DNA of 64,000 nucleotides from an uncultured delta proteobacterium (GCA_963763745.1 CAVXQJ010000016.1:513029-577028), one strand, 5' to 3'; shown: positions 25,471 to 53,804, counted from the first letter of the stretch. Notes: a model not told the origin generated them from the sequence alone. A program made the numbers and translations.

Positions 25471-25695
25471 GTTTCTCCTCCGCTCGTGCTCGGGCAGGGG
25501 TCTCCCCCCGCTCGTGCTCGGGCTCGTCCTCGTCAGCGGCGGACGATGCGAGCAGCGTGAATGTTCCGCCTGCGCGTGACCTCGCGCGCAGCCCGGCGCG
25601 CGCAGAGCCGCGCGGAGGCGAAACATGTATATTGCACGCATTGTCGCCGAGCACGGCCGAGCATGCCGGCGAGCACGAGCGGGGGAGAAATCTCG
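25471..25695. repeat. MITE-like palindromic repeat family 1, copy C (approximate)
   Basis: Left arm ctccgctcgtgctcggg (duplicated) ...gcctgcgcgtgacc; right arm cgaaacatgtatattgcacgcattg...ggcgagcacgagcgggggagaaatctc; lies between divergent ligase and hflX starts. Confidence 0.65.
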
Positions 25696-32624: not shown

Positions 32625-32651
32625 CGACTCAACTCGGCTTTCACTGGGGCG

Positions 32652-33413: not shown

Positions 33414-33428
33414 TCTTCGGAGGTTTTC

Positions 33429-35356: not shown

Positions 35357-36769
<1,413 letters not shown>

Positions 36770-36773
36770 GACC

Positions 36774-37607
36774 TCATTGCTTCGTGAAGACGAGGGCTCG
36801 GCCGTCCGGCGCATAAAGCGTCACCGTCGTCGGCGTGGCTTGGTATGTCGTGTACGCGAGTGTGCCTGTGAACGGGCAGCTCTGCGTGAGCGTGATCGAT
36901 CCGGCGCTCGCGACGAACGACCCGTTCGCGCGGCCCGTGCTTCCATCGTTCCCCGCGTCGTCGATGTCGTTGTCGACGAGCGCGTACTTGCCCGCGGCGA
37001 CTTCGTTCGTGATGCAGTAGGTCGCGCCCGTGGGTCCGCTGCCGCTGTCTGCGCCCGCGTACGCGTACGCGGCCGTCACGACGTACGTGCCGTCGACGAC
37101 GAAGCCGCCGTCGACCGCCGGCATCGCACTCGCGACGAACACCTCCGCGACGCTCGCGCCGATCTGAACGACCGCGTTGCACGCCGTGGCGGCATCCGTG
37201 TGCGCGTCCTGCGATGCGTCCGGAGCCGCACACGTCCCATCTGTGCACGATGTCGCATGCGGACAGACGACGCCGCACCCTCCGCAGTTGAACGAGTCGG
37301 CTTGCAAGTTCGCGCAGAACGTTGCGCCCGTTGTGCCACATGCCGTCGGGCTGGTGGGCGGACAGTCTTCGCACGTCGAGCTCTGACACAATTGGTTCGG
37401 AGCGCACGCAAGGCCGCATCCACCACAGTTGTCTCGATCGCTCGCCGTGTCGACGCACTGCCCATTGCACAGACCCACGCCCGCGTCGCAGGCGTTATCG
37501 GTGTACTCGACGTCGTACGTTCGGCACGCGCCGAAGATCGCGATCACGACGACGATGACCGAGCGACGCGACACGCTCGCAGCGTAACGCAAACGTGAGG
37601 TTGTCAC
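36774..37607 (-). CDS. Lipoprotein with Cys-rich NCGGCG repeats (paralogous architecture to 23013..24134)
   Basis: Lipobox IAIFGAC; DNCGGCGLACAPNQLC and FNCGGCGVVCPHATSC repeats. Confidence 0.6.
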   Translation of the reverse strand: MTTSRLRYAASVSRRSVIVVVIAIFGACRTYDVEYTDNACDAGVGLCNGQCVDTASDRDNCGGCGLACAPNQLCQSSTCEDCPPTSPTACGTTGATFCANLQADSFNCGGCGVVCPHATSCTDGTCAAPDASQDAHTDAATACNAVVQIGASVAEVFVASAMPAVDGGFVVDGTYVVTAAYAYAGADSGSGPTGATYCITNEVAAGKYALVDNDIDDAGNDGSTGRANGSFVASAGSITLTQSCPFTGTLAYTTYQATPTTVTLYAPDGRALVFTKQ

Positions 37608-37696
37608 TTTGTCAGCGCACCAACCATCCTACGGGGATCGCGGACAAGCTGTCGGACTTCAGTAAGGAATACCGCGGGAAATAGCAGGTTTTGTGA

Positions 37697-37712
37697 TGGC
37701 ACGTCGCTCGCA
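37697..37712 (+). promoter_or_regulatory. Candidate sigma-54 (-24/-12) promoter upstream of gspC (approximate)
   Basis: TGGCAC-gtcgc-TCGCA: GG and GC dinucleotides separated by 10 nt as in the TGGCAC-N5-TTGCA consensus; about 20 nt upstream of the gspC ATG; a sigma-54 activator is encoded 1 kb upstream. Confidence 0.35.
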
Positions 37713-37731
37713 GAGACGGACCCTTTGAAGT

Positions 37732-38694
37732 ATGGCCACGCCGTTCGATCAACTCCTCAAACGCCACTTTTGGGCGCCCACGCTCGCGCTGACCTCGGTC
37801 GCCGCGTTCTTCGGCGCTCGTGGCGTGGGTAACCTCTTCGGCGCGAGCCTCGGCGCGGACGACAAGCAACTCTCCGCGCCGCCGATGGCGACGAAGGCCG
37901 CACCCGCCTCGTCGAATGCAACGCAAAAGGCGACGAGCGCCGATCCGATCCTCGCGCGCAACCCGTTCGATTCGGTGACGGGACCGCTCCTTCGTGGCGT
38001 CGGCGACGACAACGCGATCGCAGTCCCCGTGGACATGAGCGATCCGACGAACGCGCCCACGTGCGACGGCGTGAAGGTCTTGATCATCGCCGCCTCGTCG
38101 GATCCGGATTGGTCGTTCGTCGCGCTGCAGGCCCCGGGCGATACGAAGAGCGTGCTTCGCCGTCGTGGCGGTGACTTCGCCGGTAAAGAGGTGAAGTTCG
38201 TCGGTTGGGATCGCGTGTGGCTCTCGGGTGGCGGTCAGCTCTGCCAAGCTTCGATGTTCAATCCGCAGGGCCCGCCTCCGACGACGCCCGTCGCGAGCGT
38301 CGCGCAACCTCCCCCCGCGGGCGGCGCGGGCGCCGTTCCGGACGACATCAAAAAAGGAATCGTTCGCATCAGCGCGACGGAGTTCAACATCGACCGCGGC
38401 ATCGTCGACAAGATCCTCGAGAACCAAGCCGAGCTGATGAAGCAGGCGCGCATCGTTCCCGAGCAAGAGAACGGCAAGGTCGTTGGCATTCGCCTCTTCG
38501 GCGTCCGCAACGACACGCTCCTCGGCGCGCTCGGAATGGAAAACGGCGATCGCCTTCAATCGATCAACGGATTCGACATGACCTCGCCCGAAAAAGCGCT
38601 CGAAGCCTACGCGCGACTTCGCACCGCCGATCACATGACGGTCGCGATCAACCGCAAAGGCTCCAACACGAACCTGGATTACAACATCAAATGA
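37732..38694 (+). CDS. gspC: Type II secretion system protein C (N-terminal TM, C-terminal PDZ)
   Basis: TM helix then C-terminal PDZ-like VVGIRLFGVRNDTLLGALGMENGDRLQSINGFDM; first gene of T2SS operon. Confidence 0.7.
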   Translation: MATPFDQLLKRHFWAPTLALTSVAAFFGARGVGNLFGASLGADDKQLSAPPMATKAAPASSNATQKATSADPILARNPFDSVTGPLLRGVGDDNAIAVPVDMSDPTNAPTCDGVKVLIIAASSDPDWSFVALQAPGDTKSVLRRRGGDFAGKEVKFVGWDRVWLSGGGQLCQASMFNPQGPPPTTPVASVAQPPPAGGAGAVPDDIKKGIVRISATEFNIDRGIVDKILENQAELMKQARIVPEQENGKVVGIRLFGVRNDTLLGALGMENGDRLQSINGFDMTSPEKALEAYARLRTADHMTVAINRKGSNTNLDYNIK

Positions 38695-38942
38695 ATCCCG
38701 AGACCCCGCTCCTCAAACAGACTCTTCGCACGACGGCCCTCATGGTCGTTCCCGTCGCGGCGTTTCTCGCGATCTTGAGCGCCGTCGCGCTCTTCGCCGT
38801 TCCGTCGTCTTCTCCGAGCGGCGCGACCAAGGAAGAGCGCGTCGTCACCGCGGGCGACAAGTCCGGCGATCAAGCGACGACGCCAGTCGCCAACCCGCGC
38901 ATCCCCGGCGCTCGCGCGACCGTCAAACCGAACAAGAACTGA
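38691..38942 (+). CDS. 83-aa single-pass membrane protein inserted between gspC and gspD
   Basis: ATG overlaps gspC stop (ATGA); MNPETPLLKQTLRTTALMVVPVAAFLAILSAVALFAVPSSS...; ends 2 nt before gspD start; last 83 codons of ORF 38205..38942. Confidence 0.5.
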   Translation: MNPETPLLKQTLRTTALMVVPVAAFLAILSAVALFAVPSSSPSGATKEERVVTAGDKSGDQATTPVANPRIPGARATVKPNKN

Positions 38943-38944
38943 TC

Positions 38945-41492
38945 ATGCGCGCATCCACGCTTTCGCTCGTCGCCGTCACCGCGCTCGTGAGTGCGTATTC
39001 GACCGTGCTCTTCGCGCAGCGCACGATCCAGCGCGTGCCAACCGTCGCCACGACCACCACGGCGGCGACTGGAAATCCGGGCGCTCCTCCAACGACGACC
39101 ACGCAAGGCGGCGGTGCTGGAGGCGGCGGTGCGGGAGGAGGAACGACGGGCAACACGACGCAACCGCAACAAGGCGGCGGCGCGGGTGGTGGTCAGCGCA
39201 CGACGGGCCCCGGCGGAAAAGCGCAAGGCGACACGGCGGCGCTCCCGCAATTCGAACAAGGCGTCGAATACGAACCGCGCGATCCCAATTACAAAGTATC
39301 GCTCTCGCTCGAAGACGCGGATCTCGCCGAGCTCGTACGCGTCATTGGCCAGCTCACGGGCAAACGCTTCATTTTTGGCGGCAAAGTCCGCAACATCAAA
39401 GCATCGATTTATGCGCCTCAAAAAGTGACGGTCGGCGAGGCGTATCAAGCGTTCTTGTCGATCCTCGAGACGAACGGGCTCACCGTCGTTCCGCACGGGC
39501 GCTTCCTGAAGATCGTCGAGACGGGCGGCATCGCGACGCAAGCCACGCCGACGTACAACGCGGGACAAGCCGCGCCCGGCGAAGATCGCTACGTGACGCG
39601 CATGCTCCGTTTGCAGCACGCGCCCGCCGACGAGATCGGCAACGTGCTCGGTCACTTCAAATCGAAGGACGGCGACATCACAGTTAGCGGCCTCCGGCAA
39701 CTTGCTCATCATCACGGACACGGGCGCCAACATTCGCCGCATGATGCAGATCGTCGAGGAGATCGACGTGGGCGCGGCGGGCGACCAAATGTGGATCGAG
39801 CCGATCCACTACGCGTCTGCGGCGGAGATCGCGTCGCGCATCAACGAGCTCTTCGAGCTCAAAGGCGGCGGCGAGAAGGGCAAAGGCGGCGGCGGTGGCG
39901 TCGGCGATTTGCACGTGACGAAGGTCGTCGCCGACGAACGCTCGAACTCGGTCATCATCGTGTCGACGGAGCGCGCTTACATGCGCATCCTCGAGTTCAT
40001 CAAGCGACTCGACGTGCCGCAAACGGGCGAGGGCGAGATTCACGTTCTCCCGCTGCAGCACGCGGACGCCGTCGAGCTCACGAAGACGCTCAACGAGCTC
40101 GTGCAAGGATCGAACACGGCCGCCGGCGGCGCGGGCAGGCCAGGCGCGGGGAAGGACTCGGCGCCCGTCCTCACGCAAGTCTTCGAGGGCGGCATCAAGC
40201 TCAGCGCCGACAAGGCGACGAACTCGATCGTCATCACGTCGTCGCTGCGCGATTTCGCGTCGCTCCGCGCGGTCGTCGATCGCCTCGATCAAGCGCGCCG
40301 TCAGGTCTTCATCGAAGCCGTCATCATGGATCTCTCGGTGACGCGCTCGACGCAGCTCGGTTTGAATTTTCACGGCGGCGGTTTGAGCGATCTCGGCATC
40401 GGCGGCGGACAGTCGCTTCTCTTCGGCGGTCTCAATCCGCTCGAGACGGTGAGCCCGCTCGGATCCGATCCGTCGATCCTCCAAGGTCTCGCGCTCGGCT
40501 TGCGCGGACCTGGCATCCCCGGAACGGAGAGCGCGAACGTGACGGGACAAACGATTCCCGCGTTCGGCGTGATCCTTCAAGCGCTCACGACGGCGGGCGA
40601 CACCGACGTCCTCTCGACGCCGCACATCCTCGCGACCGACAACATCAAAGCGGAGATCAACGTCGGACAGAACATCCCGCTTCAAACGAACATCGGCGGA
40701 CTGCCTCCGACGGGCGGCGCGGGCGGCTCGACGGCGCTGCCGACGGGCTTCGGTTTCGGCTTCGGCGCTTCGCCCGCGCGCCAAGACGTCGGCACCAAGA
40801 TCACGATCACGCCGCACTTGAACGAATCGAACGAAGTGCGTTTGGAGCTCGCGGAAGAAATCAGCGAAGCAGGCGACGCGATCGGCCAGCTCGGCGTCGT
40901 CCCGATCACGAAGCGCACGGCGAACACGCAGCTCGTCGTGAAAGATCAGCAGACCGTCGTCATCGGCGGGCTGATGCGCAATCGCCTCGCGCACCAAGAG
41001 ACGAAGATCCCGATCCTCGGCGACATCCCGCTGCTCGGCATCCTCTTCCGTCAGACGACGAACACCGTTCAGAAGTCGAATCTGCTCCTCGTGCTCACGC
41101 CGTACATCATTCGCGAGCAGGCGGATTTGCGCGCGATCTTCGAGCGCAAGATGCAAGAGCGCCAGGAGTTCCTCGATCGCTACTTCGTATTCTCCGAAGA
41201 TCACGATTACAAACCAGTCAAAGACTATTCGCGCACGAACGGGCTCCTCGAGGACATCAAAGCCACGTATCGCGCAGTCGACGAGCGCGAGCGCATCGAA
41301 GAGATCATGCGCCCGCGCGACGTCATCGGACACGCGCCGGGCGAGCCTCTCGATCTTCCGTCGCAAATGCGCTCCGGCGCCGGCGGCGGGACGACATCCA
41401 CCGAAGCGAAGCCGCCGACGGAGCAAGCGGGCAAGCCGGCCAACATCACGGTGACGCCGCCCGTTCGCAACATCGAGCGCATGGAGAAGTGA
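38945..41492 (+). CDS. gspD: Type II secretion system secretin GspD, interrupted by an apparent +1 frameshift near 39684-39692
   Basis: Signal peptide, N0-N3 domains (frame of ORF 38945..) then NLLIITDTGANIRRM and secretin domain (frame of ORF 39702..41492); removing one G from agcggcc reads DITVSASGNLLIITD. Confidence 0.8.
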
Positions 41493-43341
41493 TGCGCGAA
41501 GAACGATTCCTCGGAGAGCTGCTCGTTCGCCGCGGTCTCGTCGCCGAGGATCGCCTCGAGCCGCTTTACGCAGTTCAAAAAGAGCGCGGCGTGGCGCTGA
41601 CCGATTTGCTCGTGAACCAGCAGCTCGTCGATCCCGAGGCGGTCGCGCGCGCGGTCGCCGACGAAGCACAGCTCGCGGTCGTCCTCACGATCGATCCGGA
41701 GAAAATCCCAAACGCGATCGCGACGCGCACGCCCATCACGTTCGCGAAGAACCATCGGCTCCTCGCGTTCGCCGAGGACGATCAGTTCGTCCACGTGTAT
41801 TGCGCCGATCCGTTCGATACCGCGCCGCTCGACGATTTGCGATTGCTCTTCGGCAAGCCGGTCGAGTGCATCGTCGCGCCCGCCGAGAAGATCGTCGACG
41901 CCATCAACCGCGTCTTCGAGCGCGAAGCAGGCGGCGGCGAGCTCGAGACCGAAGCCGGCGAGGTGCACGAAGAAGAGGGCGGCGGAGACATCCTCGACTC
42001 TGACGACGAAGCGCCCGTCATTCGCTGGGTGAACTCCCTCTTTTTGCACGCGATGAAAGAGCGCGCGAGCGACATTCACATCGAGCCCGAAGAGAAGAGG
42101 TCATCGTTCGATATCGCATCGACGGCGAGCTCTACGTCGCGCGTCGCGCGCCGCGAAACTTCATGAACGCGATCATCTCGCGCGTGAAGATCGAGAGCGC
42201 GCTCAACATCGCAGAGAAGCGCTTGCCGCAAGACGGACGCATCACGAAGAAGATCGCCGGCAAGGGATTCGACATCCGCGTCTCGACCATCCCGACGAGC
42301 CGCGGATACGAGCGCATCGTCATGCGTCTCTTGAACAAGTCGAGCGTGCTCCTCGACCTCAGCGATCTCGGGTTCTCGCCGCGCGACTACGCGCTGATGG
42401 ACACCCTCATCCGCAGGCCCGACGGCATCATCCTCGTCACGGGCCCCACCGGCTCCGGAAAGACGACGACGCTCTACGCGTGCATCAACCGCATCAACGA
42501 TCCGAACATCAACATCCTCACCGCGGAGGACCCGGTCGAGTACGAGATCTCGGGTATCCACCAGGTGCACGTTCAACCGAAGATCGGTTTGACGTTCGCG
42601 AGCGCGCTCCGCGCGTTCTTGCGCCAAGACCCCGACGTCGTCATGGTCGGCGAGATCCGCGACAAGGAAACCGTCGACATCGCGATCAACGCGTCGCTCA
42701 CCGGTCACCTCGTGCTCTCCACGATCCACACGAACGACGCGGCGGGCGCCATCACGCGCATGATCGACATGGGCGTCGAGCCCTTCTTGATCCGTTCGAG
42801 CGTGATCGGGATTCTCGCGCAGCGCCTCGTGCGCGTTCTTTGTCCGCATTGCAAAGAGCCTTACGAGGCTCTCGACTCGGAGCTCGAAGAGCTCGGGCTC
42901 GGGCAAGATCGCATCGCGTGGCGCGGGCGTCGCCGCACGCGCGAGGGCACGGGCTACTACCCGCGCGGCACGCCCGATCGCGACGTGCTCGATCTCGAGC
43001 GCGGCGTGCGTCCGATGTTTTTTCGCGCGCGCGGCTGCGAGAAATGCGCGAACACCGGTTTTTCCGGGCGACGCGGCATTTACGAGTTGCTCTTGATCGA
43101 CGACCAAGTCGGACCGCTCGTTCTCCGCAGCGCCGACGCGCAAGCGATCAAACGCGCCGCGCAAGACCAAGGCATGGACACGCTCCGCGACGACGGCGCG
43201 CGCAAAGTGCTCGCGGGTCTGACGACGGTCGAAGAGGTCCTCGCCGCGAAGGGCGAAGACGTCGATCCCATGACACCGTCATCCACCTCGACTCCACCCG
43301 TGTCCGCGCGTACCGTCGCGCCAGTCACTGCGCGGGAGTAA
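41492..43341 (+). CDS. gspE: Type II secretion ATPase GspE, interrupted by an apparent -1 frameshift near 42095-42102
   Basis: N1E domain, then [11 protein letters not shown] (frame 1) continues as (R/E)[12 protein letters not shown]...NAIISRVK in frame of ORF 42163..43341; Walker [12 protein letters not shown]; tetracysteine CPHC...CEKC. Confidence 0.8.
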
Positions 43342-43344
43342 GAG

Positions 43345-44775
43345 ATGGCGGTCTTCGAATACCGCGGAGTCCTCGTCGCGAGCGGGAAGCAGGTGCACGG
43401 CTTCCGCGACGCCGACAACGCACGCGTCTTGCGCTCGGCGCTGAAGCGCGAAGGCGTTCTCCTCACGAACGCGACCGAAGACACCAAAGCGCAAGGCCAG
43501 AAGGCTTCGCGCAACATCGATTTCGCTCGGGTTCTTCCGCCGCATCGGCGTCGGCGATGTCGCGATGATGACGCGCCAGCTCGCGACGCTCGTCGGCGCG
43601 GGCATCCCGCTCGTCGAAGCCGTCTCGGCGCTCGTCGATGCAAATGGAGAAGCCCGAGCTCCAGCGCGTGCTCACGCAGGTGCGCGATCGATTGAACGAA
43701 GGTCAGTCGCTCGCGAAGGCGCTCGAAGCGCACCCCAAAGTGTTTCCGGCGCTCTACGTGAACATGGTCGCCGCCGGCGAAGCATCGGGAACGCTCGAGC
43801 AAGTGCTCATGCGTCTCGCGGACTTCCAAGAGAATCAAGCGAAGCTGCGCGGCAAAGTCTCCGCTGCGCTCGCTTATCCCGTTTTGATGATCATCATCGG
43901 CACCGCGCTCATCAGCGTGATGATGGTCGCCGTCGTGCCGAAGGTGACATCCATCTTCGCGAGCCTCGGCCAAGCGCTGCCTTGGTACACGGCGACGCTC
44001 ATCTTCATCTCCGACGTGGTCAGCTCGAACGAGACCGTCGGATTCGTGCTCACGCTCGGCACGCTCACGTCGATGCGCAAAGCGATGACGAAGCCGGCGA
44101 CGAAGAGCGGCGCGGAAGACACGCAGCAAAACACGGCAAGCCTCGTGTGGGTCGTCGTGACGGCGGTGTTCGCACTCACGCTCATCCTCGCCGCGTTCGC
44201 GGTGTCGTCGCTCGTCGCTTATGCGATCGGCATCGGTCTCGGAATCTTCGGCGGCGTCTTCTTGTCGCGCTTCGTCGCGTTTCTCGGAAAGCCCGAGGGG
44301 CGTTTGTGGCGCGACACGATGATCCTCGAAATCGCCGCTCATCGGCCCGCTCGCGCGCATGCTCGCGGTCGCGCGCTTCTCTCGCACGCTCGCGACGCTC
44401 CTTCAAAGCGGCGTGCCGCTCCTCAAGGCGATGGAGATCGTGAAGAACGTCCTCGACAACGCGAAGCTCGAGAAGGTCGTCGAGACCGCGGCCGGATCGA
44501 TCCGCGAAGGCGAGTCGATCGCCGCGCCGCTCAAACGAAGCGGAGATTTCCCGCCGATCGTGACGCACATGATCGCCGTCGGCGAGAAGAGCGGCGAGCT
44601 CGAGACGATGCTCGAGAACGTCGCCAAGGCCTACGACACGCAAGTCGACACGCGCGTTCAGGCGCTGACGAGCTTGCTCGAGCCGCTCATCATCGTCTTT
44701 CTCGGCGGCGCCGTCGGCTTCATCGCGTTTTCGATTTTGATGCCGCTCATCCAGATGAACGACTTCGTGCAGTAA
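43345..44775 (+). CDS. gspF: Type II secretion inner-membrane platform protein GspF, interrupted by three apparent +1 frameshifts (about 43526-43533, 43637-43641, 44326-44332)
   Basis: Four collinear frame segments (ORFs 43345.., 43565.., 43638.., 44359..44775) each matching successive GspF regions, e.g. ITRQLATL and SPLIGPLARMLAVARFSRTLATLLQSGVPLL. Confidence 0.75.
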
Positions 44776-44779
44776 GAAG

Positions 44780-45181
44780 ATGAAGACCTCGCAAAAAGTA
44801 TTTTTCCCGTGGGAGCGCCGGCGAGGGCTGCTCGGTGCGATCGCGCGGACGCGCGGGCGGTTCATCTTGGGCGCGATCGCCGTCATCGTTCTCGTCGTGT
44901 GGATCAGCCGGCGCGAAGAGCACGCGGCCGCGGTGCGCGCGACGCGCGCGACGATCGACACCGCGTTTCACGCGATGATTCAGTATCGCGCCGACCACGC
45001 CGGGCATTGCCCGCGCGATTGGAACGAAATGGTCGCAGCGGCTTACTTGCATGACGTCCCGCTCGACGCGTGGGGACGCCCTTTGCGACTCACGTGTCCA
45101 GGCCGGCGCGACGCGGCCGGATTCGATCTGGAAAGTGACGGACCCGACGGCATCGCCGGTGGGCTCGATAGAGTTGAATGA
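44780..45181 (+). CDS. GspG-like pseudopilin paralog lacking a canonical prepilin leader/cleavage motif
   Basis: TM helix GAIAVIVLVVWI then pilin-like ...AFHAMIQYRADHAGHCP and GspG-type C-terminus LDAWGRPLRL...DGPDGIAGGLDRV; no G-F/V-T-L-x-E site. Confidence 0.5.
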   Translation: MKTSQKVFFPWERRRGLLGAIARTRGRFILGAIAVIVLVVWISRREEHAAAVRATRATIDTAFHAMIQYRADHAGHCPRDWNEMVAAAYLHDVPLDAWGRPLRLTCPGRRDAAGFDLESDGPDGIAGGLDRVE

Positions 45182-45336
45182 TGATCAAGGAGACGAATAT
45201 GCGAATCGCAAAACAGTTGATGTTCTCCCATGGGGGGGACAGGGGGGGCAAAGCCCCCCGTTGGGATCGAGCTGCAGGCGAGATCCGCAGGGAAGTGAGC
45301 GCGCAAAGCGCGCGAGAAGGGACGCAGTCCCTTCTT

Positions 45337-45750
45337 GTGACTAACAAGCATTTCTCCAAGGCGCTGCGCCGTTCACTCTCACGCGGCGTCACGCTCGTCG
45401 AGATTCTCATCGTGCTCGCGATCGTCGGGCTCATCGCGGGCGGCATTGCCGTCTACGCGGTGCCGAAGTTCCAACAAGCGCAAAAAGACAACACGAAGAA
45501 CTCGCTCAAAGCGCTTCACGCCGTCGCCGAAGCGTGGCGCGCGAATCACGGAAACGATTGCCCGACGGTCCAACGCCTCAAAGAGGAGAAGGAGCTCGCG
45601 GCCTCGAGCGACATCAACGACGCATGGGGCGATCCCTACAAGATCCAATGCGACGACGACGCAACCTCCGTGATCAGCTGGGGCCCGGACAAGAAAGAGG
45701 GCACGCAGGACGACATCAAGTTCCCGGACAACACACCGGCCAAGCAGTGA
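45337..45750 (+). CDS. gspG: Type II secretion major pseudopilin GspG
   Basis: GTG start giving 17-aa leader MTNKHFSKALRRSLSRG|VTLVEILIVLAIVGLIAG; C-terminal DAWGDPYKIQCDD...ISWGPDKKEGTQDDIKF GspG signature; 138 aa. Confidence 0.75.
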   Translation: MTNKHFSKALRRSLSRGVTLVEILIVLAIVGLIAGGIAVYAVPKFQQAQKDNTKNSLKALHAVAEAWRANHGNDCPTVQRLKEEKELAASSDINDAWGDPYKIQCDDDATSVISWGPDKKEGTQDDIKFPDNTPAKQ

Positions 45751-45751
45751 A

Positions 45752-45925
45752 GAGAGGCTTTGGGCTTTGGGCCTTGGGCTTTAGGAAGAAAGATGAACAG
45801 GAAGATCAAAAGATCAGGAAGAAGAGTTGGGGGGGAATCCTCACTCCATTCTTCTGATCTTCCCGATCTTCCTGTTTTCACTTTCTTTCGCCTAAAGCCC
45901 AAGGCCCAAAGCCCAAAGCCTCGCG
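45752..45925. repeat. Repeat family 3 copy 3: about 175-bp compound hairpin with perfect 32-bp outer inverted repeat, immediately downstream of gspG (approximate)
   Basis: Outer IR gaggctttgggctttgggccttgggctttagg / cctaaagcccaaggcccaaagcccaaagcctc; inner stem gaacaggaagatcaaaagatcaggaagaag / cttctgatcttcccgatcttcctgtt. Confidence 0.65.
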
Positions 45926-46638
45926 CGCTTCGTGCGCACCAGCGCGCTGTCACGCTCGTCGAGATTCTCATCGTGCTTCTCATCGTGACGCTGCTCTTGG
46001 CTGGCGTCGTGATGGGGTCGGGGCAGCTCGCCAGCGCGAAGTTGCACAAGAGCGCGACCGCGCTCACGGGCCTCATTCGCGTCGCGTACGTGCGCGCGAC
46101 GGTCACCGCGCGCAGCGAGCGCATCGTGTTCGACATCGACAACAGCAAGTTCTGGCTCGAAGAGTCCGAGCAGCCGATGCTCGTCCAAACGCACGACACG
46201 ACCGGCACGGGCGGCGCAGACCCCGTCACTGCCGCGGAGCAACAAGCGCTCGCCGAGACGGCACGACTCGTCCATGGCCCCGAGGCGCCGCGCGCGACGT
46301 TTCACAAGGTCAAACCAGGCTTGTACGCGGCAGGCGACAACCAAGGCGGGTCGGATCAAGGTCTCCCGTTTGGAATCAAGTTCAGGGCGGTGCAGACCGC
46401 CCACGACGAAGAAGCACGTACGAAGGGGCGCGCATATTTGTATTTCTGGCCTGGCGGGCTGACCGAGCGCGCGCACGTCGTGTTGCGAAAAGGCGATTCG
46501 CTCGCAGACGCAGACGCGGAGACGCTCGTCGTCGCGCCCCTCACCGGCTCCGCCGTCATCAAAGCGGGCAACATCTCTTTTCCCACCATCACGGACGAAA
46601 AGGATCTCTCCGAACGCGTCGATCAGGGCTCGCCATGA
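45793..46638 (+). CDS. gspH: Minor pseudopilin GspH-like; start uncertain (only in-frame ATGs lie inside the upstream hairpin repeat)
   Basis: Pilin N-terminus RA|VTLVEILIVLLIVTLLLAG; 4-nt overlap with gspI; leader would be 52 aa if ATG 45793 is used. Confidence 0.55.
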   Translation: MNRKIKRSGRRVGGESSLHSSDLPDLPVFTFFRLKPKAQSPKPRALRAHQRAVTLVEILIVLLIVTLLLAGVVMGSGQLASAKLHKSATALTGLIRVAYVRATVTARSERIVFDIDNSKFWLEESEQPMLVQTHDTTGTGGADPVTAAEQQALAETARLVHGPEAPRATFHKVKPGLYAAGDNQGGSDQGLPFGIKFRAVQTAHDEEARTKGRAYLYFWPGGLTERAHVVLRKGDSLADADAETLVVAPLTGSAVIKAGNISFPTITDEKDLSERVDQGSP

Positions 46639-47354
46639 AGTCGCGTGGCTTTTCCCTTCTCGAGGTCATGGTCGCGCTCGCGATCTTCGGGTTGATGATC
46701 TCGGGCATTTTGGCTGCGCAGGCCGGGCTTGCGGCGAGCAACAAGAAGGCCGCCAACATGGGCCAAGCCACGACGCTCGCCCGGTGCAAGATGACCGAGC
46801 TCGAAGAAAAGTTGATGAAGCTCGGTTATCCCGCGATCGACGACATCGACAATGGCGTCATCTGCTGCGAGGCAACCGACCTAACGACGTATTCTTGCGA
46901 TTACAAAGTAGAGAAAATCATCATGCCGGATCCGCCGACGAGCGCGACGGATCTCGACGCCGGCGCGGCGAGCCTCCTCGGCCTCAATGATGGCGGCTCG
47001 ACGGCGACGCTCGATTTCGACGGCGGGCTCGGCGCGATGGGCGCCATGCTCGGACCGGCGGCGGGCACTGGAGGCGCGTCGGGTCTCGTCGATATGGCGA
47101 TGGGGATCGTTTATCCGATGATGAAGCCGATGATGGAAGCTTCCATTCGGAAGATCACCGTTACGGTGCATTGGAAAGAGGGCCCGAACCCAGTCGAATT
47201 CGTTCTCGCGCAATACGTGACGAACCCGCAGACGGGTGGATTTCAGGGCGGGTTCTTCGGCGATGCAGGCGGTCCGCTTCCAACCGGATCTGGTGCGCCG
47301 CCGGTGAAGGGCGCGCCGCCGGTGCGGACCGGAACCGCAGGAGCGCCGTTCTAA
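46635..47354 (+). CDS. gspI: Minor pseudopilin GspI-like
   Basis: MKSRGFSLLEVMVALAIFGL prepilin motif (G|FSLLE); ATGA overlap with upstream gene. Confidence 0.65.
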   Translation: MKSRGFSLLEVMVALAIFGLMISGILAAQAGLAASNKKAANMGQATTLARCKMTELEEKLMKLGYPAIDDIDNGVICCEATDLTTYSCDYKVEKIIMPDPPTSATDLDAGAASLLGLNDGGSTATLDFDGGLGAMGAMLGPAAGTGGASGLVDMAMGIVYPMMKPMMEASIRKITVTVHWKEGPNPVEFVLAQYVTNPQTGGFQGGFFGDAGGPLPTGSGAPPVKGAPPVRTGTAGAPF

Positions 47355-48046
47355 TGCGCAATCGTTCTCGCTCCCGCGGCCTCACGCTCGTCGAAGTGCT
47401 CGTCGCGCTCGCCGTGCTGACCATGATCGGCGTGCTCCTCTATGGCGTGTTCGACTCGCTCGCCCATGGCAAGAAAGCCGAGAGCATCCGCGGGGAGCGA
47501 GCGCGCGAAGGCCGCTCCGCCGTTCTGCGCATCACGCGCGAGATGCAAAGCGCATTTCTCTCGATGCACAACCCGGGGAACGTCGCGCTCCAAACGCGCG
47601 TCGTCGCGTTCATCGGCCAGAACGCGCAGCCGTTCGATCGTCTGGATTTTCAGGCTTTCGCGCATCGCCGTGTCGAAGCCAAGAGCCATGAGTCGGACCA
47701 AGCCGAGATCGGTTATTTCGCTTCACCCGATCCGAACGTCGACGAAAAAATGGATCTCGTGCGACGCGAGCAAACGCCCGCTGACATGGACGCGAAGCGC
47801 GGCGGCGTCGTGAACGTGCTCTGCGAAGACATCGAGAGCTTCGACGTGCGTTATCTGGATCCGCAAACGAGTCAGTGGCTCGAGGCGTGGGACACGACCC
47901 AAGCGCTCGGCCAACAAGGACGGTTGCCGCTCGAAGTACGGCTCACGCTCACGCTCAAACACGTGCCCGCTGGTTTGCAATCGACATACACGACCAAGTT
48001 CATGATGCCGATGCAGATGCCTCTCACCTTCGGGATCCCGCAATGA
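47354..48046 (+). CDS. gspJ: Minor pseudopilin GspJ-like
   Basis: MRNRSRSRGLTLVEVLVALAVLTMIG prepilin motif; trimmed from ORF 47171..48046. Confidence 0.65.
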   Translation: MRNRSRSRGLTLVEVLVALAVLTMIGVLLYGVFDSLAHGKKAESIRGERAREGRSAVLRITREMQSAFLSMHNPGNVALQTRVVAFIGQNAQPFDRLDFQAFAHRRVEAKSHESDQAEIGYFASPDPNVDEKMDLVRREQTPADMDAKRGGVVNVLCEDIESFDVRYLDPQTSQWLEAWDTTQALGQQGRLPLEVRLTLTLKHVPAGLQSTYTTKFMMPMQMPLTFGIPQ

Positions 48047-49422
48047 GACCGCGAAAGAAGACTCGCAAGTCGCGCAAGCGCGGGATCGCTCTCATCATGG
48101 TGCTCGGCGCGCTCACGATTCTCACGATGATGCTCGCGGAGTTCCAGGCGGACACGAGCGCGACGCTCGCGAGCGCGATGGCCGATCGCGATGGCGTTCA
48201 AGCGGAATACAATGCTCGTTCGGCGGTCAATCTCTCGAGGCTTCTCATCTCGATGGAACCAACGATTCGACAGGCCATCGCGCCGCTCTTCGCGATGATG
48301 CAGCGCGCACCGCCGCAGCTTCCCGTCTGGGAGTTCTCGGACAAGTTGCTCGCGCCATTCAACGACAAAACCGCAAACGACGAGTTCGCGGCCTCCATCA
48401 AAGTGAGCTTTGGGACCGGCAAGAACCTCGGCCTGCCCGCGGGTCGCTTCGAAGTGAAGATCGTCGACGAGGACGCCAAGATAGACGTCAACCTCGGCGC
48501 GTCGAACGACATCGCTCACATCCGCCTCGCCAAAGAGCTCATGGGCTTGATGGCGCCGCCGCAATACAACCCGCTATTCGAGCAGCGCGACTCGGCAGGC
48601 AACTACCACGATCGCATGACCATCTGCGCGGCCATCATCGACTGGGCCGACGTCGACGAGCTCGCGATGAATTGCGACATGCAAACGCCAAACGCGCCAC
48701 CGAGCGCGGGCGTCGAGGACGCGTATTACCAACTACTCGCCGTCAAACCTTATCGTCGTAAGAACGCTCCATACGATTCACTCGAGGAGCTCCACATGGT
48801 GCGCGGCATCACCGACGATTTCTGGGCGACGTTCGTCGATCCCGATCCGACGAAGCCCGAAAAGCGCGTGATGACGGTGTGGGGACAAGGCGCCGTGAAC
48901 GTGAACAGCGCGAACGCGCAAACGCTCCTCGGCGTCGTGTGCTCGGGCGCGCCGACGGCCACGATCTGCACCGATCCGACGCAAGCTGGCATGTTCCTTT
49001 CGGGCATGATGATGGCGCGCGCCATGACGATGGGCGCTCCGCTCTTCGGCACCGTGAACGACTTCATCGCGATGATGAAGGGCTCGGGTCCGATGGGCGG
49101 CATCCTCAAAGGCATGGGCATGACGCCCGTGAAGTTCCTCTCGGAGGCGGAGTTCGCAAAGACGATCACGACCGAGAGCAAGGTGTTTTCGATTTATGCC
49201 GTCGGCGTCATCAAAGGATACAAACGCGAAACGCGGTTGCGCGTCGTCGAGGTCGTGGATTTTCGAAACGCGCCGAATCTGACGGGCGCGCCGACAGGCG
49301 GGGCCGGATCGCCGAGCGCATCACCAACGAGCCCGCCACCCGCATCCACCTCTGCGCTGGCGAGTGGGCCCATCACCATGCCGGCGACCGGCGGCAACGT
49401 GATTTATTTTCGGATCGACTAA
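48043..49422 (+). CDS. gspK: Minor pseudopilin GspK
   Basis: RKRGIALIMVLGALTILTMMLAEF GspK-type N-terminus; ATGA overlap with gspJ; trimmed from ORF 47875..49422. Confidence 0.7.
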   Translation: MRPRKKTRKSRKRGIALIMVLGALTILTMMLAEFQADTSATLASAMADRDGVQAEYNARSAVNLSRLLISMEPTIRQAIAPLFAMMQRAPPQLPVWEFSDKLLAPFNDKTANDEFAASIKVSFGTGKNLGLPAGRFEVKIVDEDAKIDVNLGASNDIAHIRLAKELMGLMAPPQYNPLFEQRDSAGNYHDRMTICAAIIDWADVDELAMNCDMQTPNAPPSAGVEDAYYQLLAVKPYRRKNAPYDSLEELHMVRGITDDFWATFVDPDPTKPEKRVMTVWGQGAVNVNSANAQTLLGVVCSGAPTATICTDPTQAGMFLSGMMMARAMTMGAPLFGTVNDFIAMMKGSGPMGGILKGMGMTPVKFLSEAEFAKTITTESKVFSIYAVGVIKGYKRETRLRVVEVVDFRNAPNLTGAPTGGAGSPSASPTSPPPASTSALASGPITMPATGGNVIYFRID

Positions 49423-49434
49423 AAGGAAGAGCGA

Positions 49435-50952
49435 ATGGCCAGGTATCTCGGAATCGACATCGGCACGACGAGCGTGAAGGCGGCAGTGCTCCGCGTCGCG
49501 TATCGCAAGCTCGTGCTCGAAGGTCTCGGCTCCGCGCCCATTCCTCCGGACGGAGATCGCGCAGCGGCGATTCGCGAAGCGTCGCAGGCGGCGCTCGGTC
49601 AAGGCGCGGCCGACGGCGTCGCGACGGCCATCCCCGGAACCGAGATCACGCTCCGCACGGTGCGCATCCCCGAGAGCGCGCAGCGTCAGCTCGCCGAGGT
49701 CCTTCCGTTCGAGCTCGAGTCGCAGCTCCCGTTCGATCTCGACGACGCGATCCTCGATTACCGCGTCATCGAGGGTGCGACGAACGACGAAGGCCTCGCC
49801 GTTCTCAGCGCGGTCACGCGCGTCGATGACGCGCGCAAACGCGTCGATCTCGTGAAGAGCGCGCTCGGCACGGAGCCCGAGCGGCTCGGCGTGGGGCCGT
49901 TTCCGCTCGCGAACCTCGCGCCGTATGCGGCCGAGCTCCGCGCGGAAGGGACCGTTGCGCTGCTCGATCTCGGAACGAAGACGAGCGACCTCCTCTTCAT
50001 GCAAGGCGGCGAGCCCGTCTTCGCGCGCACGCTCTCGCTCGGCACCGAAGGTCTCCCACAGACGGCGGCGAGGCTCGCGCGCGAAATCCGTCTGTCGCTC
50101 GCCGCGTTCCGCGCGCAGGGCGGCGTGCTTCCGAACGAGATTTACCTGTGCGGCGGCGGCGCGTTCGTGTCGGGCGCCGAGTCGTTCCTCGCGGCGGAGC
50201 TCGAGCGACCCGTCGTGCGCATGCCTGCGCTCTCGATGGAGCTCGGCGAGCGCGTGGGTCGCATCGCGAACGACTTCCCGCTCTACGCAGTCTCGATCGG
50301 GCTGGCACTATCGCTCTCCTCGCGCGATGGCGGGCTCGACATGCGCAAAGGCCCGCTCGCGTACGAGCGCGGATACGGATGGATGCGCGATCGCATCCCC
50401 GCGCTCGTCGGTCTCGGCGCGGTGATCGCCGTGAGCTTCGTGTTCTCGTCGTGCACGGGCGTCTACGCGGCGTCGAAGGAGCGCACCACCCTCGAAGCGG
50501 CGCTCGGCAACGTGACGAAAGAAGTCTTCGGCGAAGAGACGACGAGCGCCGAGCACGCGACCGAGCTCCTCGCCGCGCAAAACGCGACGGAAGAAGATCC
50601 CCTCGCGCACGCCGACGCGTTCGACGTGATGGTGCGCCTCAGCGAGCACATCCCGCAATCGATGACGCACGACATCGAAGAGCTCGACGTGCAGAAGGGC
50701 CACATCGTCGTTCACGGCATCGTCGGCACGATCACCGAGGCGCAATCCATCGTGACGTCGCTCGCCACCGAGAAGTGCTTCTCCGACGTGAAGAACACGC
50801 GCATCAGCCAAGTCGTCGGAGGCGAGCGACAGAAATACGTGATCGAGTTCGACCTGAAGTGTCCGGAGGACGTGAAGGCGGTGAAGAAGAAGACGGACTC
50901 ATCGGCGTCCGGAAGCGCAGCGTCGAGCGCGACCAGCGCAGCGGGGAAATGA
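49435..50952 (+). CDS. gspL: Type II secretion protein GspL (cytoplasmic actin-like domain, TM, periplasmic domain)
   Basis: YLGIDIGTTSVKAAVL actin-like fold N-terminus, TM helix IPALVGLGAVIAVSFVF, periplasmic C-domain. Confidence 0.65.
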   Translation: MARYLGIDIGTTSVKAAVLRVAYRKLVLEGLGSAPIPPDGDRAAAIREASQAALGQGAADGVATAIPGTEITLRTVRIPESAQRQLAEVLPFELESQLPFDLDDAILDYRVIEGATNDEGLAVLSAVTRVDDARKRVDLVKSALGTEPERLGVGPFPLANLAPYAAELRAEGTVALLDLGTKTSDLLFMQGGEPVFARTLSLGTEGLPQTAARLAREIRLSLAAFRAQGGVLPNEIYLCGGGAFVSGAESFLAAELERPVVRMPALSMELGERVGRIANDFPLYAVSIGLALSLSSRDGGLDMRKGPLAYERGYGWMRDRIPALVGLGAVIAVSFVFSSCTGVYAASKERTTLEAALGNVTKEVFGEETTSAEHATELLAAQNATEEDPLAHADAFDVMVRLSEHIPQSMTHDIEELDVQKGHIVVHGIVGTITEAQSIVTSLATEKCFSDVKNTRISQVVGGERQKYVIEFDLKCPEDVKAVKKKTDSSASGSAASSATSAAGK

Positions 50953-51554
50953 TCATGGCGCAACGGAAACCCTTCTTCGAACGCTTCGGCCTCAACGCGC
51001 GCGAGCAGCGGCTCGCGCAGATCTTCGCCGTCGTCGCTGCGGGCATTCTTCTTCTCGGCGTGCCCATCGGACTCGAGTCGTGGGTCGCGTCGAAGCGCTC
51101 GGGCAACACGGAGCTCCGCGAGGCCATCGATGCGGTGCAAGCGTCGCGCGCGCAGATGCGCGCCTCGCAGTCGAAGCGTGACGCCATCACGAACCGCTAC
51201 GCGCGCAAAGCCCCCGAGCTCGGCGGCTACCTCGAGCAAATGGCGCGCAAACAAAAGCTCGAAGTGACCGACTCCGTCGACCGTCCGCCGCTCCCGATCG
51301 GCAAGCACTACACGGAGCGAAGCACCACGATCCACCTGAAAAAGGCTGGTTTGCTGTCGATCTCGAAATTCATGGAGTCGCTCGAGCAAGCGGGCACGCC
51401 CATCGCCATCAACCGCCTCAACTTGCGACGGCGCACGGGCGAGCAGGATTCGTACGACGTCGAGCTCGGCATCTCCGCCTACGATCGCAACGACAAGCCC
51501 AGCGCCGACGCGAAGGACGCGGGCGCGCGCGCACCGAAGGAGAGGAACAAGTGA
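50949..51554 (+). CDS. gspM: Type II secretion protein GspM-like
   Basis: Single TM (IFAVVAAGILLLGVPIGL) plus periplasmic domain; ATGA overlap with gspL and GTGA overlap with gspN. Confidence 0.55.
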   Translation: MIMAQRKPFFERFGLNAREQRLAQIFAVVAAGILLLGVPIGLESWVASKRSGNTELREAIDAVQASRAQMRASQSKRDAITNRYARKAPELGGYLEQMARKQKLEVTDSVDRPPLPIGKHYTERSTTIHLKKAGLLSISKFMESLEQAGTPIAINRLNLRRRTGEQDSYDVELGISAYDRNDKPSADAKDAGARAPKERNK

Positions 51555-52588
51555 ATCGGTGGAAGGAGCTCCTTCGCAAATACGGCAAGTGGGTTGCGTA
51601 CCCGCTCTTCTATTTGTTCATGTTCGTCCTCTGTCTTCGGCTCGTGTTTCCTTACGAGAAGGTGCGCGAGCGCATCGTCGCGAGCTTCAACTCGCAACAG
51701 CATCCCGGCCCCGGGCAGCAGCAGCTCTCGATCGACGAAGTCGGCGGGTGGTGGCTCACGGGCGTTCGCATCAAAGGCATTCGCATCGTGAGCGCGCCGA
51801 GCGAGCCGGGCGGCGCGCCGAGCGAGATGAAGATCGACGAAGCGCGCGCGAAGATCGGCGTGCTCTCGGCGATGATCGGTCACACCGACGTGAGCTTTCA
51901 CATCGATGCATTCGGCGGCGAGATCGATGGCACGTTCGAAGACAGCGCGAAGGAGCGGAGCGTCGAAGCGGAGCTCGAGGGCGTCGACTTCACGCAGATC
52001 AACGCGCTCACCGATTTGCTCGGCTTGCCCGTCGAGGGCCACGCGAAGGGAAAGCTCCTGCTCGTGATGCCCGAGCAGAAAGCATCGAAGGGAAGCGGGA
52101 CCCTCACGCTCGACGTGGCCGACGTCGCGATCGGCGACGGCAAAGCGAAGCTGAAGAACGCGCTCGACTGGCCGAAGCTCGCCGTCGGTCCGCTCTCGCT
52201 CACCGCGGAAGCGAAAGACGGCGTGCTGAAGATCACGAAGCTCTCGGCGGGCGGAAAAGATCTCGAGCTCTCGGGCGAGGGAAAAGTCCAGATGCGCGAT
52301 CTCGCCAGCGAGAGCACCGTCGACGTGAACATGAAGTTCAAGATCAACGACAGCTACCGGAGCAAGAGCAAGCTCACCGAGGCGCTCTTCGGCGCGGCCG
52401 GCTCGACCAAGGGTGGCGACGTCGATCGATTCGTGCCGAAGATGAAGAGCGCGCACCGCGCCGATGGGTTCTACGCATTTCGCTTGCAAGGTTTGCTCGG
52501 CAAGCTCGATCCGCAACCGAATCCTTCGTACGGCGGGCCGATCGCGCCCGAGCCGCGCGGCACGGCTCCACCGGATCAAGGTCCGTGA
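51551..52588 (+). CDS. gspN: Type II secretion protein GspN-like
   Basis: N-terminal TM (YPLFYLFMFVLCL) and about 300-aa periplasmic domain in the position and with the length of GspN. Confidence 0.55.
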   Translation: MNRWKELLRKYGKWVAYPLFYLFMFVLCLRLVFPYEKVRERIVASFNSQQHPGPGQQQLSIDEVGGWWLTGVRIKGIRIVSAPSEPGGAPSEMKIDEARAKIGVLSAMIGHTDVSFHIDAFGGEIDGTFEDSAKERSVEAELEGVDFTQINALTDLLGLPVEGHAKGKLLLVMPEQKASKGSGTLTLDVADVAIGDGKAKLKNALDWPKLAVGPLSLTAEAKDGVLKITKLSAGGKDLELSGEGKVQMRDLASESTVDVNMKFKINDSYRSKSKLTEALFGAAGSTKGGDVDRFVPKMKSAHRADGFYAFRLQGLLGKLDPQPNPSYGGPIAPEPRGTAPPDQGP

Positions 52589-53355
52589 AGCTCGTCGGGG
52601 TGTGCCACTTGCCCGCGTTGCCCGGAAGTCCGCGCGCGGGACGCCATGCGATGCGCGCCGCGATCGATCGCGCGCGGAGCGACGCGCGCGCGCTCGAGCG
52701 AGCGGGCTTCGACGCGATCATCGTCGAGAATTTCGGCGACGCGCCGTTCTACAAAGACGAAGCGCCCAAGGTCGTGACCGCGGCGATGACCGCATGCGCG
52801 ATCGCCGTGCGCGAAGCGGCGCCGCGACTCTCGCTCGGGATCAACGTGCTCCGAAACGACGCGGGCTCGGCGCTCGCCGTCGCGGCGGCATCGGGCGCGT
52901 CGTTCGTTCGCGTGAACGTGCTCTCGGGCGCGCGCCTGACGGATCAAGGCGTGATCGAAGGACGCGCGGCCGAGGTGATGCGACTCCGCGCGGCGATCGC
53001 GAAGGGCGTGAGCGTGTTCGCCGACGTCGACGTGAAGCACTCCGCGCCCATCGCGGTGCGGCCTATCGAAGAAGAAGTCGCCGAGCTCGCGGACCGCGCA
53101 CACGCGGACGCGATTTTGGTGACGGGCGTCGCGACGGGCGCGCCACCGGACGAACAGGATTTGCTCCGCGTGCGCCGCGCGACTCGCGCGCCGGTGTACG
53201 TCGCGAGCGGCGCGACGGAAGAGACGGTCCGCGCGCTGCTCGATCGATGCGACGGCGTCCTCGTCGGGACGGCGATCAAGCGCGCGCGCCGCGCGGGAGG
53301 CCCCGTCGATTTCGCGCTCGCGAAGCGCTTCGTGCGCGCAGCCAAGAAACGATGA
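52585..53355 (+). CDS. BtpA/SgcQ-family TIM-barrel protein, translationally coupled to gspN
   Basis: GTG overlaps gspN stop (GTGA); VKLVGVCHLPALPGSP...IIVENFGD...LGINVLRND pattern of BtpA family. Confidence 0.65.
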   Translation: MKLVGVCHLPALPGSPRAGRHAMRAAIDRARSDARALERAGFDAIIVENFGDAPFYKDEAPKVVTAAMTACAIAVREAAPRLSLGINVLRNDAGSALAVAAASGASFVRVNVLSGARLTDQGVIEGRAAEVMRLRAAIAKGVSVFADVDVKHSAPIAVRPIEEEVAELADRAHADAILVTGVATGAPPDEQDLLRVRRATRAPVYVASGATEETVRALLDRCDGVLVGTAIKRARRAGGPVDFALAKRFVRAAKKR

Positions 53356-53804
53356 GACGCGTGCCGCGCGCGCTCGCGTTCTTTCTCGTGGTCGCGTGCG
53401 AGCCCCCGCCGACCGTGCAAGTCACGGCGCCGGTCGCGCCCGCGAGCGCGCAAACGCCCATCGCGATCGACGCGCGCCTCGAGCTCGAAGAAGGACCCGA
53501 CCCGAGCTTCGGCGAAGGCGCGACGAGCGTGCGCGCCGTCCTCGTCGTCGCGGCGCTCCAAACGCACAAGCAGCTCTTCGCCGTTCCGTTTCCATATCGA
53601 TGCGCGCGAAGACCGGGCAGCGATCTCGCGATCGAGTGCAGCGGCGACGACGGAAGCGCGTTCGCCACGCTGCGCGCCGACGAGCGCCACATCGTGGCGA
53701 CGGCGCGCGACTACGGCCGCCTCGATCGCAACATCGAAACGATCGAGCTCCCGCTCCCCGTAGGTGTGGTGGTCAACATCTACGCGCCCGCGAAGCTCCC
53801 GTAG
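53352..53804 (+). CDS. Small hypothetical lipoprotein, last gene of the T2SS transcription unit
   Basis: ATGA overlap with upstream gene; MRRVPRALAFFLVVAC lipobox. Confidence 0.45.
   Translation: MRRVPRALAFFLVVACEPPPTVQVTAPVAPASAQTPIAIDARLELEEGPDPSFGEGATSVRAVLVVAALQTHKQLFAVPFPYRCARRPGSDLAIECSGDDGSAFATLRADERHIVATARDYGRLDRNIETIELPLPVGVVVNIYAPAKLP

Follow-up and report, generated by a model that had tools for sequence, protein, structure and literature searches.

A type II secretion cluster with predicted sigma-54 control and a trailing btpA gene in an uncultured bacterium of probable Polyangiaceae affiliation

In Pseudomonas, Geobacter, Myxococcus, and Xanthomonas (RpoN2-PilRX in the last), PilR and sigma-54 regulate type IV pilin genes from a -24/-12 promoter. 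The machinery of type II secretion systems (T2SS) is itself encoded in gene clusters, that of Leptospira being an operon of 13 genes, among them one that is ftsA-like (PMC5243855). In Myxococcus the T2SS is essential and exports slime and MYXO-CTERM surface proteins, the latter having been described as its cargo in M. xanthus (PMC12475490). The regulation of the system in myxobacteria is undescribed in the literature that we found, and nothing was found there that links it to sigma-54. Here, we describe a T2SS locus in a stretch of 64,000 nucleotides (the window) from an uncultured delta proteobacterium (GCA_963763745.1, CAVXQJ010000016.1:513029-577028). Sixteen plus-strand open reading frames (ORFs) were called between 37732 and 53804, in the order gspC, an 83-amino-acid (aa) ORF, gspD, gspE, gspF, a gspG-like paralog, gspG, gspH, gspI, gspJ, gspK, gspL, gspM, gspN, btpA, and a lipoprotein ORF. 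We read the locus as the housekeeping T2SS cluster of an uncultured member of the Polyangiaceae (Myxococcota), made up of gspC to gspN with a trailing btpA and a lineage-specific lipoprotein ORF and driven by sigma-54, and give this explanation as a whole, with the frame breaks described below taken as assembly errors, a probability of roughly three in four.

In its component set and gene order, the locus is like the Myxococcota ("delta-type") and Leptospira-type systems, including M. xanthus Gsp, with which it shares a delta GspC, a PilM-like GspL, and a Leptospira-type GspN. Unlike them, it has btpA at its end, a GspG-like paralog lacking the prepilin motif, a small membrane ORF between gspC and gspD, and a conserved module of sigma-54 promoter and activator; moreover, its gspD, gspE, and gspF are frame-broken in this sequence. 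The regulatory part resembles the PilR systems in that an NtrC-family regulator with a GAFTGA motif and a Fis-type helix-turn-helix (HTH) is encoded beside the machinery, and in its -24/-12 promoter with tandem upstream sites. It differs from them in its target, which is gspC, at the head of an entire T2SS operon, instead of a pilin gene, and in the lack of an adjacent gene for a cognate histidine kinase; the GACA-N3-TGTC consensus of the upstream sites was derived in this analysis and not from PilR. The BtpA protein, in turn, matches over its full length the family of the cyanobacterial BtpA (photosystem I biogenesis) and E. coli SgcQ, and shares the predicted (beta/alpha)8 barrel. Unlike the cyanobacterial protein, it is encoded in a non-photosynthetic setting, at the end of a T2SS operon, and it falls outside the photosystem I equivalog (NF045918, 230.7 bits against a cut-off of 400). 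New here are a regulatory module found across the family and an accessory gene, a modest variation on the known T2SS.

For comparison, 160 related loci (L-numbers below) were collected by scanning a genome collection and metagenomes for matches to the GspF protein of the window, repaired as described below. They come from Polyangiaceae/Labilithrix metagenome-assembled genomes (MAGs), soil metagenomes, and Labilithrix luteola DSM 27648 (L031; NZ_CP012333, 8.348-8.369 Mb), and the closest of them is 93% identical at the protein level. As far as the contigs reach, the order from gspC to gspN is common to all of these loci, L. luteola included. In the window, the per-frame plot of G+C at third codon positions (GC3) and a Viterbi segmentation by codon usage showed plus-strand coding unbroken from 37732 to about 53800. 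Downstream come two convergent genes, one hypothetical and one for a Ser/Thr kinase, as well as purD, and the unit is therefore taken to end at about 53.8 kb. An earlier note on this DNA, made from the sequence alone, had proposed a sixteen-gene T2SS operon; the ORFs, their common strand, and their tight spacing held up, while its models of gspD, gspE, and gspF proved wrong because of hidden frame breaks.

The trailing gene encodes a full-length member of the BtpA family, which matches PF03437 from position 5 to position 254 of the 254-position profile (5.8e-77, 259 bits, cut-off 30) and also TIGR00259 (253 bits, cut-off 153.4). Among the 75 loci that reach far enough past gspN, btpA follows gspN on the same strand in 50, usually within 0-50 nt, and this linkage spans the near clade, Labilithrix, and Sorangium-like loci, including loci with 52-58% GspF identity. 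The earlier note had called the coupling of the two genes undescribed for a T2SS and had named its absence from relatives as a refutation; the linkage recurs as just described, and no paper was found that ties the BtpA family to the T2SS. An AlphaFold2 model of the protein (mean predicted local distance difference test, pLDDT, 92.4) folds as a (beta/alpha)8 barrel, with a region for phosphate binding at its C-terminus. Its best solved matches, at TM-scores of about 0.6, were hexulose-phosphate synthase, ThiE, TrpA, and GGGP synthase, and no solved BtpA relative was found in the PDB by sequence. Because these fold matches are only generic phosphate-binding TIM barrels, no substrate can be inferred from them; many polar residues are invariant, which suggests that BtpA is an enzyme.

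A functional tie between BtpA and secretion is plausible. Equally good, however, is the reading that btpA is a passenger, that is, a cytoplasmic metabolic enzyme whose gene uses the end of the T2SS transcript without any role in secretion, and we would put the chances of this at about even. It is favored by the 25 of the 75 loci in which the operon ends at gspN with no btpA after it (a finding that also counts against the cluster composition proposed above), by the absence of a signal peptide or transmembrane segment from BtpA, by the generic phosphate-binding fold, and by the occurrence of the family in contexts unrelated to the T2SS, as judged from the family names (cyanobacterial BtpA and E. 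coli SgcQ). Against it stands the retention of the linkage among deeply diverged loci (GspF identity as low as 52%), with junctions that are tight or overlap, which is unusual for a random neighbor. A more specific proposal, which we offer only tentatively and consider rather doubtful, is that BtpA serves the Polyangia T2SS as a dedicated accessory. It would be translated together with GspN and would synthesize or modify a phosphorylated lipid or small molecule needed for the machine to be assembled or for its cargo, for example MYXO-CTERM surface proteins, to mature. If this were true, a widespread family without known biochemistry would be placed in a functional context for the first time; the conserved linkage in itself opens a genetic route to this family of unknown function.

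The second distinctive part of the locus is the control region of gspC. The -24/-12 element found there, TGGCACGTCGCTCGCA, departs only once from the TGGCAC-N5-TTGCW consensus (TCGC for TTGC), and the spacing of its GG and GC is exact. It is the sole TGGCAC-N5-TNGCW match in the 64 kb; at least one such match was present in 17 of 100 shuffled sequences, and for this reason the match in a single genome is weak evidence. The relatives were more informative: the pattern TGG[CT]A[CT]-N5-[TC]NGC[ATC] was found in 54 of the 60 unique gspC upstream regions, where 0.006 per region would be expected, and across them TGGCAY and TCGCW are constant while the five spacer bases vary freely. Two further conserved sites lie upstream, separated by 40-41 bp; measured from the TGG, they stand at about -106 and -66, or at -95 and -54 in the clade of the window. 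The pattern of the distal one (site 1, TGTCACTTTGTC) occurs in 35/60 unique upstream regions, against 0.015-0.02 expected, and the broader [GC][AC]CA-N3-TGTC, which takes in the proximal palindrome (site 2, GACAAGCTGTC) and the GACA-type variants of site 1, in 49/60 (0.02 expected).

The gene for an activator of the appropriate type is located nearby. It encodes an NtrC-family response regulator with GAFTGA at residue 238, the Walker A motif GESGTGKE at residue 191, DEIGE (Walker B) at residue 262, and a Fis-type HTH, and its ortholog ends 130-260 nt 5' of gspC in most relatives. Sigma-54 control of the cluster through this activator is therefore strongly supported by sequence conservation, and from it we infer RpoN dependence. 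The promoter, the activator gene, and the enhancer-dependent control that the earlier note had proposed are all supported by the conserved promoter motif, the two palindromic upstream sites, and the usual adjacency of the activator gene. In the mechanism that we favor, transcription would start at about 37723, and the promoter would be opened by the neighboring orphan NtrC-type regulator bound to the two GACA-N3-TGTC palindromes, 54 and 95 nt 5' of the -24 element. The conserved module of adjacent regulator, two palindromes, and sigma-54 promoter is a model that can be tested in the cultured L. luteola.

Some features of the window fit this mechanism less well. The predicted 5' untranslated region would be only about 9 nt long, with no clear Shine-Dalgarno sequence (37713-37734); leaders of 9-13 nt are also predicted in the closest relatives (L001, L002, L004, L005, and L081). 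In addition, an opposite-strand gene separates the activator gene from the gspC control region. The short leader, the TCGC at the -12 box in place of the canonical TTGC, and the 17% of shuffled sequences with a match are what would favor the alternative that the element is not a working promoter and that the cluster depends on a sigma-70-type promoter or on read-through from upstream. We consider this improbable, since the motif is found in the same place in 54 of the 60 relatives' upstream regions, with the palindromes at fixed phasing. A scan for sigma-70-like sites, which is a weak one for Myxococcota, found none upstream of gspC, and the opposite orientation of the upstream gene makes read-through unlikely. 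That gene, which encodes a Stig1-like Cys-rich protein, starts next to upstream site 1 and has no homolog in any of the 160 related loci; several relatives carry other insertions at the same spot. A second Stig1-like gene is found on the minus strand at about 23013-24200, and both encode lipoproteins with Cys-rich CGxCG repeats.

In the sequence as given, the core gspD, gspE, and gspF frames are interrupted. The window has a G+C content of 60-70%, and because of this long spurious ORFs are frequent in it. The GC3 and Viterbi tracks showed the coding frame switching inside the three genes as modeled in the earlier note, and three-frame translation resolved the 1073-aa ORF (38945-42166) that had been read as gspD into a chimera. 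It begins with the true GspD N-terminus, in frame 2, through "...KDGDITV"; continues out of frame for about 1.8 kb as an Arg-rich nonsense peptide; and ends with the true GspE N-terminus, containing "...IHIEPEEK". The remaining part of GspD, opening SGNLLIITDTGANIRR, lies in frame 0, and that of GspE in frame 1, while gspF crosses four frames before its true stop. The earlier gene models are thus chimeric ORFs that conceal five frame breaks, and the ATGA overlaps once read at gspD/gspE (42163-42166) and gspF/gspG-like (44780-44783) are artefacts of them.

The breaks are five 1-nt indels, one in gspD, one in gspE, and three in gspF (positions in Table 1). In an alignment against eight relatives, every one of them was a single-base difference unique to the window; none is shared by any of the 160 relatives, in all of which GspF residues 1-475 are contiguous. 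After repair, GspD matched the Pfam domains N0, Secretin_N (three times), and Secretin; GspE matched T2SSE in one stretch over positions 2-369 of 370, as well as MshEN; and GspF matched T2SSF twice. From the evidence that follows, we consider it likely that the indels are assembly errors, of the long-read consensus kind, rather than marks of pseudogenes, and the organism probably has an intact T2SS.

One argument comes from a constraint test, in which deviations from the consensus were counted in query-anchored alignments at columns at least 97% conserved among the other sequences. None was found in the repaired proteins (0/197 columns for GspD, 0/255 for GspE, and 0/147 for GspF; 0/599 altogether), whose score equals or beats that of the median relative. 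A long neutral decay is unlikely, because the time needed to accumulate five indels should have left many substitutions at conserved columns. Breaks were also sought in the relatives, as frameshift-like gaps between adjacent tblastn segments. They were concentrated in three long-read loci of the Microflora Danica collection, namely L005 (nine, five of them in gspD), L004 (six), and L054 (three), where they affect T2SS genes and the activator gene; the Microflora Danica loci L007 and L034 had no break. Among the other 155 or so loci, most of which are short-read assemblies judging by their contig names, four had one break each. The Microflora Danica MAGs are Nanopore-only assemblies, Medaka-polished against indel errors (PMC12313526).

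The distribution of the indels speaks on the other side. None of the five is in a long homopolymer, and five of the six indels of the 64 kb fall within 4.65 kb, with a probability of about 3e-4 under uniformity by a scan-corrected binomial estimate. A clustering of breaks like that of the window is also seen in L005; a possible cause is that coverage was locally low, or that strains were mixed, where the operon is most conserved. That the indels are real, the lineage having recently inactivated its secretin, ATPase, and platform genes to leave a decaying pseudo-operon, would agree with their position outside homopolymers and with the confinement of five independent breaks to three core genes, none being found in the 9 kb downstream. 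It would also agree with the state of gspH, which looks compromised as well (a hairpin separates its start from the mature part, and the -1 residue is Ala in place of Gly). Even so, such decay has little probability in our estimate: no ultra-conserved column of the three proteins is substituted, the repaired frames hold no in-frame stops, comparable break clusters occur in relatives known from Nanopore MAGs, the sixth indel (a missing base at about 20752) hits a beta-helix gene unrelated to the T2SS, and in M. xanthus the gspD gene is essential (PMC12475490). Programmed ribosomal frameshifting or transcriptional slippage would explain why the repaired frames give perfectly conserved proteins, but it can be set aside as extremely improbable, as both +1 and -1 shifts would be needed over five sites that lack slippery heptamers, rare or stop codons, and homopolymer tracts and are shared by none of the 160 relatives. 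In high-GC long-read MAGs, then, frameshifts can hide in very long alternative-frame ORFs and give rise to plausible but wrong gene models.

The product of the beta-helix gene with the sixth indel (20026-21521, plus strand) has a linker rich in Gly and a tail resembling MYXO-CTERM (GCGC...hydrophobic...RRRARR). The missing base splits the gene at ATGATTTTC-GCGGCAAC, and the split is masked by a 542-aa alternative-frame ORF at 19893-21521.

With the frames repaired, overlaps of 4 nt or 1 nt were found at 9 of the 15 junctions, these being gspC/83-aa ORF, gspD/gspE, gspH/gspI, gspI/gspJ, gspJ/gspK, gspL/gspM, gspM/gspN, gspN/btpA, and btpA/lipoprotein ORF. They are of the ATGA, GTGA, and TAATG types (TAATG at gspI/gspJ, GTGA at gspN/btpA, and ATGA at btpA/lipoprotein ORF). 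Four other junctions (83-aa ORF/gspD, gspE/gspF, gspF/gspG-like, and gspK/gspL) have gaps of 2-12 nt, and the remaining two are spacers of about 190 nt on either side of gspG that hold structured repeat elements; an in-frame ATGA occurs at 45178, at the gspG-like/gspG junction. The near-continuous overlaps once attributed to this unit are therefore restricted to the nine junctions above. The genes would be transcribed together into a single long mRNA, and translation would be coupled at about 60% of the junctions. A scan for terminator-like sites was uninformative, as the 23 sites found are not above the 16 +/- 4 of shuffled sequences. A hairpin of -134 kcal/mol inside the unit, between gspG and gspH, is at odds with a single intact transcript, since it could break or process it.

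The two spacers hold elements of different kinds. Element A, a GC-rich triple hairpin of about 100-108 nt before gspG, has copies with 87-92% identity directly 5' of the mature gspJ coding region in two relatives (L001, 11410-11510; L005, 14083-14171) and a partial copy before gspG in L004 (11880-11914). It leaves the pseudopilin frame open in both the window and L001; because these read it in different frames, it is conserved as nucleotides and not as a peptide. Element B, after gspG, is the hairpin mentioned above, with a minimum free energy of -133.8 kcal/mol (z = -14.3) and 32-nt arms that are 100% complementary. Its core recurs at 17533-17630, and it is absent from the gspG-gspH site in the nearest relatives L001, L002, and L005. 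A search of Rfam with 37.4-54.0 kb gave no family, the long hairpin yielding only sub-threshold, microRNA-like noise. Through both elements, the frame of the pseudopilin that follows stays open from an ATG further upstream, and they may therefore be either intergenic or, as leader peptides of unusual length, translated.

For gspG, the candidate starts are a GTG at 45337 (17-aa leader), an ATG at 45199 with an AAGGAG Shine-Dalgarno sequence (63-aa leader), and the ATG at 45178, in frame. Among 126 loci, the spacer before gspG is open in the gspG frame in 103, against 60 and 12 for the other two frames, a result that is ambiguous for leader translation. For gspH, the only in-frame starts are a TTG at 45760 and an ATG at 45793, both within the 5' arm of element B; no in-frame start codon is present between the hairpin and the cleavage site, and the Ala at -1 of GspH corresponds to Gly in the relatives. 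Expression or processing of gspH may be impaired. Further long palindromic intergenic elements, similar to miniature inverted-repeat transposable elements, were observed at 10404-10526, 11193-11327, 17533-17630, 18808-19134, and 25448-25714; two of these share the arm GGGCTGTCGTGTGATTG, and that at 18808-19134 is a nested pair of inverted repeats.

Among the other genes of the cluster (Table 1), the prepilin cleavage/methylation motif (N_methyl) was present in gspG, gspH, gspI, and gspJ, and no prepilin peptidase (GspO/PilD) is encoded within 37.7-53.8 kb. The GspG-like paralog has a basic N-terminus, one transmembrane helix, and a GspG-type globular domain, without the G-(F/V)-T-L-x-E prepilin motif and without Glu5. 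It is found at the same position in 143/160 loci, nearly every locus that covers that position, and may be a non-cleaved, membrane-anchored pseudopilin-like component. The 83-aa ORF gave no match in Pfam or NCBIfam and has homologs at the same position only in the closest relatives (L001-L005, L007, L081-L083, and L096). As for GspE, its N-terminus (41489-41570) resembles RLGxxLLxxGLIxxxxLxxxLxxQ, which we take to be the MshEN motif for binding cyclic di-GMP (c-di-GMP); the Pfam MshEN match covers residues 66-147 and not this stretch. The resemblance hints that the ATPase could bind c-di-GMP. The last gene of the unit had been taken for a lipoprotein gene belonging to it, and its lipoprotein signal and coding composition agree with a real gene; as a conserved part of the system it did not stand, with homologs in 0/160 loci and no Pfam match.

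Table 1. Positions and supporting evidence of the features of the T2SS locus and its control region, numbered from the first nucleotide of the window
Feature	Position	Strand	Evidence and remarks
NtrC-family response-regulator sigma-54 activator gene	35357-36769	+	Pfam Response_reg, Sigma54_activat, AAA_lid_14, HTH_8
Stig1-like Cys-rich protein gene	36774-37607	-	Pfam Stig1; between activator gene and gspC control region; outside the system
Upstream site 1, candidate activator site	37602-37613	+	G[AC]CA-N3-TGTC-like; about 95-107 nt 5' of the -24 TGG in relatives
Upstream site 2, candidate activator site	37643-37653	+	Perfect GACA/TGTC palindrome; 54-67 nt 5' of the -24 TGG
Sigma-54 -24/-12 element (predicted), TGGCAC-N5-TCGCA	37697-37712	+	Predicted transcription start at about 37723
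gspC, delta-proteobacterial type	37732-38694	+	NCBIfam NF041515 GspC_delta, 371 bits (cut-off 150), full length
83-aa single-pass membrane protein gene	38691-38942	+	Between gspC and gspD; GC3 0.82, coding-like
gspD, secretin	38945-41492	+	One extra base at 39686 breaks the frame
gspE, ATPase	41489-43341	+	One base missing at 42097/42098 breaks the frame
gspF	43345-44775	+	Extra bases at 43525, 43640, and 44328 break the frame
gspG-like paralog	44780-45181	+	Weak T2SSG/TIGR01710 match, C-terminal part only
Element A, 108-nt GC-hairpin repeat (triple hairpin)	45225-45332	+	In gspG-like/gspG spacer or gspG leader-coding region
gspG, major pseudopilin	45337-45750, start uncertain	+	N_methyl and TIGR01710 (below cut-off)
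Element B, near-perfect hairpin of about 170 nt	45754-45922	+	Between gspG stop and mature gspH coding region
gspH, minor pseudopilin	45793-46638, start uncertain	+	N_methyl and TIGR01708 (below cut-off)
gspI, minor pseudopilin	46635-47354	+	N_methyl at residues 2-26; position kept in relatives
gspJ, minor pseudopilin	47354-48046	+	Pfam T2SSJ and N_methyl
gspK, minor pseudopilin	48043-49422	+	Pfam T2SSK_1st; NCBIfam T2SS_GspK below cut-off
gspL	49435-50952	+	Pfam PilM_2 and T2SSL; PilM-like actin-fold N-terminal domain
gspM-position gene, 201 aa, one N-terminal transmembrane helix	50949-51554	+	Conserved position; homologs in 84 relatives; no family match in Pfam or NCBIfam
gspN, Leptospira/delta type	51551-52588	+	NCBIfam TIGR04411, 137.7 bits (cut-off 50)
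btpA/sgcQ-family TIM-barrel gene	52585-53355	+	PF03437 and TIGR00259, full length
Lineage-specific ORF with lipoprotein signal LVVAC	53352-53804	+	G+C at codon positions 1-3 0.73/0.51/0.85, coding-like

Elsewhere in the window, three coding-like ORFs in the same frame lie in tandem on the plus strand at 32544-33977 (32544-32975, 32976-33413, and 33414-33977), with single stop codons between them, and the last of them encodes an isochorismatase-family protein.

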